The notes below the pieces were generated by a model. It worked only from the letters and a program-made list of their open reading frames with translations. It did not search any database and was not told the DNA's origin. A stretch of 9,599 nucleotides of DNA from a virus (lineage: Duplodnaviria; Heunggongvirae; Uroviricota; Caudoviricetes), in the IMG/VR virus record IMGVR_UViG_2541047169_000010. One strand, given 5' to 3'. Made by a program: the position numbers and the translations under genes. Shown piece by piece: positions 4,047 to 7,400 of the stretch (position 1 is its first letter; every line of letters starts with the position of its first letter).

Positions 4047-5431
4047 TGGCAATTATTGATGATGTGATCGGCGTGTTTTCCCCCGGGTGGAAAGCAGCCA
4101 GACTGCGTTCAAGGGCGTTAATCATGGCCTATGAGGCGGTGAAACCGACCCGGACACATAAAGCCCGGCGGGAAAATCGCTCTGCTGATCAGCTCAGTAA
4201 ATACGGTGCGGTTTCCCTGCGGGAGCAGGCCCGTTTTCTGGATATCAATCATGACCTGGTGATTGGTGTGTTTGACAAGCTGGAAGAGCGGGTGATTGGT
4301 GCCAGGGGAATTATTGTGGAGCCTCAGCCATTACGAAAAAACGGGGAAATGGCGGCTGAGCTGGCTGCGGATATCCGCCGTTTGTGGGCTGAATGGTCCG
4401 TGAGTCCGGATGTGACAGGGCAGTATACCCGTCCTGTGCTTGAACGTTTACTGCTGCGGACCTGGCTGCGGGATGGTGAAGTGTTTGCGCAGATGGTCAG
4501 TGGTGCGGGAAACGGTCTGGAACGGACGGCGGGAGTGCCATTCTGGCTTGAGGCGATGGAGCCGGATTTTGTTCCCATGCGCACTGATGAATCCGCCGGA
4601 CTGAATCAGGGGGTTTTTCTTGATGAGTGGGGAAGACCGAAAAAATATCTGGTTTATAAAAATTATCCGGTCAGCGGCCGGCAGAGTGATACGAAAGAAA
4701 TCGCTGCCGGAAAAATGATCCACCTGAAGTTCACTCGTCGTCTGCATCAGACGCGAGGCTCATCCATGTTATCGGGGGTGCTGATGCGGATCAGTGCCCT
4801 TAAGGAGTATGAGGATGCGGAACTGACAGCGGCGCGTATTGCTGCGGCGCTGGGACTGTATATCCGTAAAGGTGACGGACAGGACTATGAAGATCCGGGG
4901 ATCCGCAACGGCCAGTTGCGTGCAGTGGCAGCAGGCAGTCGTCTGAGTTTTTCCAGTGCGGCGCGTAACTATAACGGCACCTACAGCGCCCAGCGGCAGG
5001 AGCTGGTCGAGTCCACGGATGGTTACCTGATCCTGCAGGACTGTTTTATTGGCGCGGTAACCCGCCCGGTGTACCGGACATGGCTGAATATGGTGGTTGC
5101 GGCAGGTCTGCTGAAAATTCCGGCGGATGTGGAGATGAAAACGCTATATAACGCGACGTATTCCGGTCCGGTGATGCCGTGGATCGACCCGGTTAAGGAA
5201 GCTGAAGCCTGGAGAATTCAGATCCGGGGTGGTGCAGCGACAGAATCTGACTGGGTGCGTGCCGGTGGGCGCAATCCGGATGAGGTCAAACGTCGCCGCA
5301 AGGCTGAAATTGATGAAAACAGCAGACTGGGGCTGGTCTTTGATACTGACCCCGTCAACGACAAAGGAGGCAACAGTGCCGGAACTGAACGACAGTATCA
5401 GCGCGACACCGAAAGCCAGCATGAAGAATAA
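4046..5431 (+). CDS. portal protein (lambda-type portal family by size and position)
   Basis: 461 aa ORF whose start overlaps the W stop (TAATG at 4044-4048). Position between W and the prohead protease is canonical for the portal (lambda B). Acidic C-terminal tail. No motif-level verification was possible. Confidence 0.88.
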   Translation: MAIIDDVIGVFSPGWKAARLRSRALIMAYEAVKPTRTHKARRENRSADQLSKYGAVSLREQARFLDINHDLVIGVFDKLEERVIGARGIIVEPQPLRKNGEMAAELAADIRRLWAEWSVSPDVTGQYTRPVLERLLLRTWLRDGEVFAQMVSGAGNGLERTAGVPFWLEAMEPDFVPMRTDESAGLNQGVFLDEWGRPKKYLVYKNYPVSGRQSDTKEIAAGKMIHLKFTRRLHQTRGSSMLSGVLMRISALKEYEDAELTAARIAAALGLYIRKGDGQDYEDPGIRNGQLRAVAAGSRLSFSSAARNYNGTYSAQRQELVESTDGYLILQDCFIGAVTRPVYRTWLNMVVAAGLLKIPADVEMKTLYNATYSGPVMPWIDPVKEAEAWRIQIRGGAATESDWVRAGGRNPDEVKRRRKAEIDENSRLGLVFDTDPVNDKGGNSAGTERQYQRDTESQHEE

Positions 5432-7400
5432 ATCCTGGTTCAGGATGCAAGCTGGGGGGCCGGGTGACGCGGATATTTATATTTATGACGAGATTGGTTT
5501 CTGGGGAGTTACCGCGAAGCAGTTTGTCAGCGAACTGAATGCACTGGGTGATATCACCCACATTAATCTCCATATCAATTCACCGGGTGGCGATGTCTTT
5601 GAAGGCATCGCCATTTTTAATGCCCTGAAAAATCAGGGGGCGACCATTACCGTGTATGTGGATGGCGTTGCCGCCTCGATGGCATCTGTGATTGCGATGG
5701 CCGGTGATACGGTCATTATGCCGGAAAATGCCTTCATGATGATCCATAAGCCATGGGGATTCAGTGGCGGGGATGCTGAGGATATGCGCAGTTATGCCGA
5801 TTTGCTGGATAAAGTCGAATCGGTACTGTTGCCAGCCTATGCGCAGAAAACCGGAAAAACCACCGATGAAATTGCCGCCATGCTGGCGGATGAAACCTGG
5901 ATGTCCGGTGCCGAATGTCTGGCACACGGATTTGCTGACCAGGTGACACCCGCTGTTGAGGCAATGGCATGTATTCAGTCAAAACGTACAGAGGAATTTA
6001 AAAAGATGCCGGAATCCATCCGAAACATGATTACTCCGCCACGCAACAGTGCCCCGCGTGATACCACAGTGACAATCCCTGCACCGGCGGTAACAGAACC
6101 ATCACCGGTACCGGCAGTGTCTGATGAGGCGACCATTCGCGCCCGCGTTATGGCTGAGCAGAAAGCCCGCATGTCAGGCATTAACCATCTGTTTGCCATG
6201 TTCGGCGGTCGCTATCAGACGCTTCAGGCACAGTGCGTGGCTGATCCTGACTGTTCGCTGGAAATGGCCCGTGAACGTCTGCTGAATGAAATGGGCAAGG
6301 AGTCCTCGCCGACCAACAAAAATACACCGGCCCATATTTATGCCGGAAACGGCAATTTTGTGGGGGACGGGATCCGCCAGGCGATGCTGGCCCGTGCCGG
6401 ATTTGAAAATGTCGAGAAGGATAACGCCTATAACGGGATGACCCTGCGTGAATGGGCTCGCATGTCACTGACGGAGCGCGGTATTGGGGTGGCCAGTTAT
6501 AACCCCATGCAGATGGTCGGGCTGGCGCTGACGCACAGCACCTCTGATTTTGGCAATATTCTGCTGGATGTGTCGAACAAGGGGCTGATCCAGGGCTGGG
6601 AGGAATCAGAAGAAACCTTCCAGAAGTGGACCCGTAAGGGACGCCTGTCAGACTTCAAAACAGCGTATCGCGTGGGGATGGGCGGTTTTGGTTCTCTGCG
6701 CCAGGTTCGTGAGGGGGCGGAGTATAAATACATCACCACCTCAGATCGCAAGGAGACCATTGCACTGGCCACTTACGGGGAGATTTTCTCCATCACCCGC
6801 CAGGCCATTATCAATGATGATCTGAATATGCTGGTGGACGTGCCGATGAAGATGGGGCGTGCGGCGAAGGCAACGATTGGTGACCTGGTCTACAAGGTGC
6901 TGACGGATAACCCGAAACTGTCCGACGGTAAGGCGCTGTTCCATGCCGATCACAAAAATATTGCCACCGGGGGGATCTCCGTTTCCGGACTGGATGCGGC
7001 CCGTCAGATGATGCGCCTGCAGAAAGAAGGCGATCGTGCCCTGAATATCCGTCCGGCCTTTATGCTGGTACCGGTGGCACTGGAGACGGTGGCGAACCAG
7101 ACCATCAAATCGGCCAGTGTGAAAGGGGCGGATGCAAACGCCGGTGTCATTAACCCTATCCAGAACTTTGCTGAGGTGATTGCAGAAGCGCGTCTTGATG
7201 CGGCAGACCCGAAAACCTGGTATCTGGCGGCGGCACAGGGCACTGACACCATTGAAGTGGCCTGGCTGGATGGTGTGGACACGCCATACATTGATCAGCA
7301 GGAAGGTTTCACCACTGACGGCATTGCCACAAAAATCCGTATTGATGCCGGAGTGGCACCACTTGACTGGCGCGGGCTGGTGCGTTCGTCGGTGGCCTGA
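5376..7400 (+). CDS. prohead protease (ClpP/S49-like) fused in one frame to scaffold-like linker and major capsid protein
   Basis: Continuous ~2 kb ORF. AAAGGAGG at 5363-5370 lies 5 nt before in-frame GTG 5376; alternative ATG at 5421; the track's ATG 5229 lies deep inside the portal and is unlikely. N-terminal domain has serine-protease signatures GVAASMASVIAMAGD and MMIHKPWG. Central Pro/Ala-rich and charged helical segment. C-terminal ~330 aa has the composition and length of an HK97-fold major capsid protein. The same fused arrangement is annotated in Gifsy-2-type and O157 lambdoid prophages, from memory. Confidence 0.88.
   Translation: MPELNDSISATPKASMKNKSWFRMQAGGPGDADIYIYDEIGFWGVTAKQFVSELNALGDITHINLHINSPGGDVFEGIAIFNALKNQGATITVYVDGVAASMASVIAMAGDTVIMPENAFMMIHKPWGFSGGDAEDMRSYADLLDKVESVLLPAYAQKTGKTTDEIAAMLADETWMSGAECLAHGFADQVTPAVEAMACIQSKRTEEFKKMPESIRNMITPPRNSAPRDTTVTIPAPAVTEPSPVPAVSDEATIRARVMAEQKARMSGINHLFAMFGGRYQTLQAQCVADPDCSLEMARERLLNEMGKESSPTNKNTPAHIYAGNGNFVGDGIRQAMLARAGFENVEKDNAYNGMTLREWARMSLTERGIGVASYNPMQMVGLALTHSTSDFGNILLDVSNKGLIQGWEESEETFQKWTRKGRLSDFKTAYRVGMGGFGSLRQVREGAEYKYITTSDRKETIALATYGEIFSITRQAIINDDLNMLVDVPMKMGRAAKATIGDLVYKVLTDNPKLSDGKALFHADHKNIATGGISVSGLDAARQMMRLQKEGDRALNIRPAFMLVPVALETVANQTIKSASVKGADANAGVINPIQNFAEVIAEARLDAADPKTWYLAAAQGTDTIEVAWLDGVDTPYIDQQEGFTTDGIATKIRIDAGVAPLDWRGLVRSSVA

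Follow-up and report, generated by a model that had tools for sequence, protein, structure and literature searches.

A conserved candidate internal start in a protease–scaffold–capsid fusion gene of a lambdoid prophage

The window analyzed here is a stretch of 9,599 nt from a tailed phage (Caudoviricetes; IMG/VR record IMGVR_UViG_2541047169_000010), and its plus strand carries a gene that joins a ClpP-type protease, a linker, a scaffold-like segment, and a major capsid protein in one open reading frame (ORF; 5376..7400). We consider it probable, from comparison of the sequence with its homologues, that translation of this gene begins at two codons of the one frame, GTG 5376 and ATG 6006, giving a long and a short form. 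The gene and its products are described first, followed by the internal start, its conservation, and the explanations that compete with internal initiation.

Reading frame, domains, and family of the fusion gene

The ORF list and inspection of the sequence showed that the plus-strand frame has no stop codon between 5229 and the TGA at 7398-7400, to which a TAA is directly adjoined. GTG 5376 is the most probable start of the long form; with this start, the form spans 5376..7400 on the plus strand (674 codons plus the stop codon, 73.1 kDa), in agreement with the single uninterrupted frame of ~675 codons described in the initial annotation. Its Shine–Dalgarno (SD) sequence, AAAGGAGG (5363..5370, plus strand), is located 5 nt ahead of the GTG, within the 3'-terminal part of the portal gene, which overlaps the start of the long form by its last 56 nt. 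Among the 56 in-frame start-like codons, GTG 5376 had the strongest SD duplex (−11.6 kcal/mol), and its position and SD were kept, with either GTG or ATG as the codon, throughout the Enterobacterales clade. The start had initially been regarded as ambiguous among GTG 5376 with a strong SD, ATG 5421, and an ATG at 5229; the first of these was retained and the other two were not. The codon at 5229 is a GTG rather than an ATG, and it was considered and set aside in favor of GTG 5376. ATG 5421 was rejected for its lack of an SD (−0.1 kcal/mol) and its absence from phage mEp460, and ATG 5445, the start used by some records, was rejected on its weak SD (−2.2 kcal/mol).

The N-terminal part of the protein is a ClpP-fold serine protease domain (5433..5960, plus strand; residues ~20–195). 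An AlphaFold (AF2) model built on an alignment of 42 homologues had a mean predicted local distance difference test score (pLDDT) of 86, with values above 90 in this domain. Pfam CLP_protease matched residues 46–191 with an expectation value (E) of 1.7e-36, NF045542 (ClpP-related head maturation protease) scored 224 bits against a cut-off of 120, and a Foldseek search of the PDB found that the domain resembles ClpP chains with a template modeling (TM) score of ~0.8, which is the fold anticipated for this part. The motifs quoted in the initial annotation (GVAASMASVIAMAGD, MMIHKPWG, the Pro/Ala-rich stretch, and IRARVMAEQKARM) were all found in the translation. The first two had been described as ClpP/S49 signatures; the ClpP part of this description stands, and the S49 part does not, as Pfam assigns the domain to CLP_protease. 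Two residues of the quoted motifs, Ser101 (codon 5676-5678, plus strand) and His124 (codon 5745-5747, plus strand), were invariant across the 42 diverse homologues (36–55% identity) and are the putative catalytic Ser and His of the domain. The score against the ClpP equivalog model TIGR00493 (61.6 bits; cut-off 308.6) and those against other ClpP models were far below the cut-offs, and thus the name 'Clp protease ClpP', given to this protein in many records, is a misnomer.

Two short helices were modeled after the protease domain at residues 202–206 and 213–219. A disordered linker rich in Pro, Ala, and Thr follows (6045..6119, plus strand; residues 224–248), with a pLDDT below 50 and a sequence that is hypervariable between homologues. 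It leads to a helical, scaffold-like (delta-like) segment (6126..6296, plus strand; residues 251–307) with the motif E..R...I.A.F..F, in which helices at residues 251–274, 281–289, and 295–307 were modeled at a pLDDT of 80–96 and R265 was nearly invariant in the homologue alignment. This helical segment could act as a built-in scaffold that is removed by the protease. A short disordered stretch was modeled at residues 317–324, between the helices and the capsid domain, and the N-terminus of the mature capsid protein probably lies near it.

The C-terminal part (6357..7397, plus strand; residues ~328–674) is a large alpha/beta domain with the HK97 fold of major capsid proteins. Pfam Phage_capsid_4 matched its core (residues 384–671, E 7.9e-56), besides a weak match to Mu gpT. 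A sequence search of the PDB with the whole protein returned ClpP chains only and no capsid relative, and the Foldseek matches of the full-length model were likewise all ClpP; the HK97 fold was therefore identified from a separate model of residues 211–674 (pLDDT 86.5). Foldseek matched this model to the capsid proteins of HK97, D3, Mu, NF5, and phiXacJX1 and to encapsulins with a probability of 1.00 and an E of ~1e-8 over 270–300 columns, confirming the HK97 fold expected for the C-terminal half.

The fusion itself is ordinary and already catalogued. The protein scored 1003.8 bits (cut-off 475) against the NCBIfam model NF045540 (scaf_prot_MCP1, ClpP-like prohead protease/major capsid protein fusion protein), aligning end to end (residues 17–657 against profile positions 2–651 of 652), and RefSeq gives the gene the same name. 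As is characteristic of that family, it is a single uninterrupted ORF between a portal gene upstream and a decoration protein gene downstream. A megablast search found the gene in 2070 of the 5426 complete E. coli genomes (~38%), with a coverage of at least 80% in 2016 of them. An exhaustive HMMER search retrieved 40,792 relatives, and among the 150 best-ranked cluster representatives, over 100 were full-length fusions with 35–60% identity. Among phages, the window region was 100% identical to VT1-Sakai, 99.7% to ASU11, 96–99% to several Stx2 phages, and ~77% to mEp460, cdtI, Ayreon, and Tritos, and the window protein was 58–59% identical to that of the MD8-group phage BR200a. Actinophage annotators use the label 'major capsid and protease fusion protein', and for Pseudomonas phage MD8, PMC8508860 argues that one gene encodes the protease, the scaffold, and the capsid protein. 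As the fusion belongs to a curated and widespread family, the contrast with the separate or nested genes of lambda that the initial annotation drew overstates its novelty.

There is a negligible chance that an error of sequencing or assembly, or a pseudogene, accounts for the fusion and that two genes split by a stop codon or frameshift are present instead. Broken copies occur occasionally (an IS629 insertion in VT1-Sakai, a frameshift in locus L169, and a break in locus L073), and the prophage in the window has a damaged portal gene of its own. Against this explanation, identical or near-identical intact ORFs are found in the 2016 E. coli genomes mentioned above. Nearly all of 80 loci taken from GTDB species genomes (76–40% identity, mostly Gamma- and Betaproteobacteria) have one uninterrupted ORF, as do nearly all of 160 loci across Proteobacteria (40–100% identity). 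The gene is also carried by viable phages such as mEp460 and Ayreon, a temperate siphovirus with a 57-nm head whose homologue is 77% identical, and a dedicated NCBIfam model exists. This breadth of intact homologues excludes the frameshift artefact that had initially been left open.

Two irregularities were observed among the homologues. In VT1-Sakai (L003, 6921-8230), IS629 splits an otherwise identical fusion gene at a point equivalent to approximately 6296 of the window, and the two halves are annotated as 'scaffolding protein' and 'hypothetical protein'. Six loci (L024, L025, L132, L139, L142, and L144) match only from residue 121 or 143 onward; they resemble N-terminally different or truncated versions and may reflect mosaic joints inside the protease domain.

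The candidate start at 6006 and its conservation

ATG 6006 is in frame with the long form and is preceded by the SD core GAGGA (5991..5995, plus strand), encoded by Glu206–Glu207; both were noticed in the initial annotation, which gave a spacer of 9 nt, whereas the spacer ATTTAAAAAG counts 10 nt. The proposed nested short form (6006..7400, plus strand) would extend in frame from Met211 to Ala674 (464 aa, 50.5 kDa), be 3'-coterminal with the long form, start with (M)PESIRNMITPPR, and contain the linker, the scaffold-like helices, and the capsid protein, but no protease. The SD duplex of ATG 6006 (−6.0 kcal/mol) ranked fourth among the 56 in-frame start-like codons and fell within the range of the true gene starts in the window (−3.3 to −11.6). 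The site belongs to the least-structured 0.9% of the ORF, and both the SD and the ATG are unpaired in the local fold. As a positive control, the proven nested start of lambda Nu3 was evaluated by the same measure; its SD (−6.9) ranked third of 38, and thus a real nested start does not stand out more strongly in a single sequence than ATG 6006 does.

Met211 was kept as Met-Pro in all 56 genome loci compared down to 49% identity, spanning Enterobacterales, Pseudomonas, Pasteurellaceae, Shewanella, Psychromonas, and others. This was replicated in IMG/VR viral loci (79 of 79), which added 15 new upstream contexts. The linker directly after Met-Pro is hypervariable. In Vibrio phage K283, the ClpP-type protease is unfused (47% identical), and Ala takes the place of Met211, and the same column holds Ala, Val, Ile, Pro, or Thr in 136 distant fusion representatives, in which Pro212 is nearly invariant; the Met is thus not a requirement of the protease. 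In most of the distant clades lacking Met211, an ATG occurs 20–30 residues downstream, often as the only ATG of the linker, and is preceded by AAGGAG, CAGGAGG, GAAGGAG, or a similar sequence. A linker ATG with an SD of −5 kcal/mol or lower was present at 72 of 79 loci, compared with 12.3% of 1607 other in-frame ATGs in the same ORFs. The median share of equally sized windows elsewhere in an ORF that equaled or surpassed the linker was 12% (mean 0.135, ~0.5 expected).

The SD core is conserved at the level of the nucleotide. Codon −5 relative to the ATG ended in G (NAG) in all 38 distinct 21-nt contexts of the Met-Pro clade, while its residue varied among Glu, Gln, and Lys and the usage of G-ending codons in the ORFs themselves ranged from 0.17 to 0.87. 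GAN invariably follows as the next codon, so that every context contains an AGGA/GGAG core, and the few loci with another residue at −5 retain GGAG or AGGAG through a register shift. The synonymous diversity at codon −5 was 0.00 (559 same-residue pairs), compared with 0.46–0.71 at most neighboring codons, and was also low at −8, +2, and +5, as expected around a start codon. Across 5982-6023 of the window and its homologues, Lys, where it occurs at −8, is encoded by AAA in nearly all the Met-Pro loci, and a strong preference for a final A is seen at codons +2 and +5, which extends the footprint of synonymous constraint around the ATG. The 50 nt around the site had a mean folding energy of −5.0 kcal/mol (−11.4 kcal/mol for ORF-wide windows) and a GC content of 44% (compared with 55%). 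The conserved ATG, the SD core at a synonymous site, and the low mRNA structure support the nested start proposed in the initial annotation, and this start probably yields a second, protease-less scaffold–capsid protein.

The same pattern bears on the idea that the internal SD and ATG are an inert relic of a scaffold–capsid gene that was separate until the protease gene lost its stop codon. The site lies exactly at the junction of protease and scaffold, where separate genes meet in unfused relatives such as Vibrio phage K283, and in the frameshifted copy L169, the gene caller chooses the same ATG. A relic would decay, however, and here the neighboring synonymous sites are near saturation while the third base within the SD never changes, the A-rich codons at −8, +2, and +5 are retained, and in distant clades the site has moved and yet persisted. 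We therefore regard a relic as very improbable.

Locus L169 (2357-4332, GCA_000755365.1) is a frameshifted copy of the fusion in which a premature TAG terminates the protease ORF. The next ORF was called from precisely the conserved Met-Pro ATG, which has AAGGA ahead of it; the break could stem from an error in sequencing or from a natural split of the gene. Two short database proteins starting at 'MP' (P0211 and P0163) were considered as unfused scaffold–capsid genes and rejected. They are not evidence for such genes, since one comes from a contig cut 35 nt upstream (L168) and the other from the frameshifted fusion copy L169.

A comparable feature was found in an independent family of fusions, NF045541 (scaf_prot_MCP2), which was sampled with Vibrio phage 1.055.O and 15 IMG/VR relatives (47–84% identity). 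These proteins resemble the window protein in having a protease-type N-terminal domain fused to a Phage_capsid_4 capsid protein, and the N-terminal domain had no match to CLP_protease or any other Pfam family. The window protein scored 417.8 bits against NF045541, under the cut-off of 525 and over residues 198–656 only. An in-frame ATG with an SD (GAAGAGG, GAGGA, or GGGGA; −5.5 to −8.0 kcal/mol) occurs right after the N-terminal domain in 16 of the 16 loci, often as Met-Pro. The fusion of Vibrio phage 1.055.O (L085, 1817-3835; relatives L170-L187) is annotated as 'major capsid protein'.

It is unlikely, in our judgment, that only the 73-kDa polypeptide is made, with every subunit carrying a protease that removes itself and the SD-like sequence being incidental. 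Met211–Pro212 and the acidic and Lys residues upstream would then be kept as a protease tail, a cleavage site, or a docking site. Phe208 and Pro212 are conserved even in the absence of the Met, which indicates a role at the protein level, and a single product is annotated in all the records compared. The signal in the single sequence is modest, and no short product was reported in the literature searched. Production of the full-length protein alone does not explain, however, why the Met is invariant only in the fusions of this clade and is replaced by Ala in the unfused homologue, or why codon −5 can encode Glu, Gln, or Lys, even with a reversal of charge, and yet its third base never changes. 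It also leaves unexplained why an SD and an ATG appear elsewhere in the linker where Met211 is lost, and why the independent NF045541 family has the same feature. By our estimate, moreover, 415 tethered proteases would fill ~40–50% of the procapsid cavity.

Several observations weigh against internal initiation. In the window alone, the SD is only of moderate strength, and synonymous recoding of the seven upstream codons at this single locus gave p ~0.3; neither single-locus test is significant by itself, and only the comparative pattern is highly non-random. The loci compared are phylogenetically related, and the joint probability of 1e-14 is thus an upper bound on significance. Seven of the 79 loci compared for a linker ATG, mostly of a clade with short linkers, have no convincing internal SD and ATG. 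The low GC content and weak structure could partly reflect a peptide rich in Lys, Asn, Glu, and Phe under constraint at the protein level, and the part of the motif comprising Phe208 and Pro212, conserved for protein reasons, does not concern initiation. The internal site could also be blocked by ribosomes already translating from GTG 5376. In the literature searched, no member of the fusion family had been subjected to N-terminal sequencing, mass spectrometry, or ribosome profiling, and the papers on phi458 and Ayreon presented no virion protein data. No record compared annotates an internal ribosome-binding site with an ATG. We regard the nested start as a well-supported inference that is, as far as our literature search showed, unreported.

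Proposed two-product mechanism and the surrounding module

With initiation at both starts, GTG 5376, with its strong SD and portal overlap, would direct synthesis of a 73-kDa protease–linker–scaffold–capsid chain, and ATG 6006, with an AGGA-type SD in an unstructured A/U-rich stretch, would direct that of a 50.5-kDa linker–scaffold–capsid chain. As the capsid domain is common to both forms, they would co-assemble into the procapsid, and the protease would be brought inside as a covalently tethered part of the long-form subunits. How often each start is used would set the stoichiometry of protease to shell. In the assembled particle, the protease would then cut away the linker and the scaffold segment as well as itself, so that a mature capsid protein of ~35–38 kDa remains, to be decorated by the downstream cement protein. 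By a rough estimate, the internal parts (residues 1–324) of 415 long forms total 14.5 MDa and would fill 37–52% of the cavity, compared with 13–19% for the short form; the cavity radius of 20–22.5 nm is an assumption informed by the 556 Å procapsid of JBD30.

We lean, with somewhat less confidence, towards a general version of this scheme, in which the protease–capsid fusion genes of tailed phages, of both NF045540 and NF045541, would generally give two products and the initiation ratio would dose the protease of the procapsid. If the internal start is used in the window gene, two precursors instead of a single one are encoded by a head gene that is very common in prophages, translation sets the protease-to-shell stoichiometry, and it becomes clear how a T=7 procapsid avoids packing ~415 tethered proteases. 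The annotation in the records compared would then lack a major virion precursor of a gene found in ~38% of complete E. coli genomes, affecting how virion proteomics is read, and a synonymous knock-out of the SD would provide a simple genetic handle on protease dosing into procapsids.

The fusion gene lies in a lambdoid late module with the order Rz/Rz1, DUF1441 small terminase, gpA-type large terminase, W-like gene, portal, and fusion, followed by a Phage_cement_2 decoration gene and then by Gifsy-2/FII-like, Z, and U genes. The lambda-type portal gene (4046..5431, plus strand) was recognized by Pfam and NCBIfam matches that are split. It has an in-frame deletion of 39 aa (117 bp) in a conserved region, with the junction near 4900, and apart from it matches the portal of ASU11 at 100% identity (461 compared with 500 aa). 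The prophage in the window is probably defective. The cement gene (7488..7814, plus strand) matched Phage_cement_2 with an E of 6.6e-19, and its equivalent in mEp460 is annotated as head decoration. Between the stop codon of the fusion and the cement gene, a GCCC-GAAA-GGGC hairpin is followed by a run of U7 (7423..7441, plus strand). This hairpin is a possible intrinsic terminator: a rho-independent terminator is annotated at the corresponding position of mEp460, the folding energy is −7.9 kcal/mol with a z-score of only −1.0, and a consensus terminator scan did not call it.

Another nested pair is present at the start of the window, where an Rz gene (64-531) embeds an out-of-frame ORF for an Rz1-like lipoprotein with a lipobox (284-490). 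A region of ~700 bp (540-1240) that separates the lysis genes from the small terminase gene holds only short ORFs with no family assignment; given its location ahead of the terminase genes, it could hold the cos site.

Comparison with known systems

The genes of the MD8 gp5 type in NF045540 have the same architecture as the window gene, and neither the family name, the records, nor the available text of PMC8508860 mentions a second, internally initiated product. In lambda, the protease and the scaffold are encoded by the nested in-frame genes C and Nu3 (Shaw & Murialdo 1980, as cited in PMC8508860).

The window gene resembles the lambda pair in several respects. The start codon of lambda C is likewise a GTG with a strong SD (−12.0), overlapping the end of the portal gene B, and an internal start with its own SD, in frame, 3'-coterminal, and similar in SD strength, follows the ClpP-fold protease domain. 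In contrast, lambda C is annotated as an S49 peptidase rather than matching CLP_protease, and the capsid protein E is encoded by a separate gene. BLASTP of the window protein to lambda C/Nu3 gave a collinear alignment that was not significant (E 0.38), in which AEQKARMSGINH of the helical segment aligns with AENSRIMGILN of Nu3, and a profile comparison to lambda gpE found no similarity. In view of the lack of significant homology to C/Nu3 and the assignment to CLP_protease rather than S49, the window gene would work like C/Nu3 without being a member of that family.

In HK97, gp5 consists of a delta domain and the capsid protein. The window protein has a comparable arrangement, with an HK97-fold capsid domain preceded by a helical N-terminal segment, and the proposed short form shares the layout of gp5. 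The HK97 protease gp4 is encoded by a separate gene, belongs to another family, and is targeted non-covalently, whereas the long form of the window gene would tether the protease covalently.

Herpesvirus UL26/UL26.5 and phage Mu I/Z are overlapping in-frame genes that give a protease-bearing long form and a commoner, protease-less short form. The C-terminal assembly part shared by the two forms in these systems is the scaffold only, and the capsid protein is a separate polypeptide. The window gene differs from these systems and from lambda in that the capsid protein would be part of both products, and if both starts are used, the principle of lambda C/Nu3, Mu I/Z, and UL26/UL26.5 extends to the capsid protein itself.

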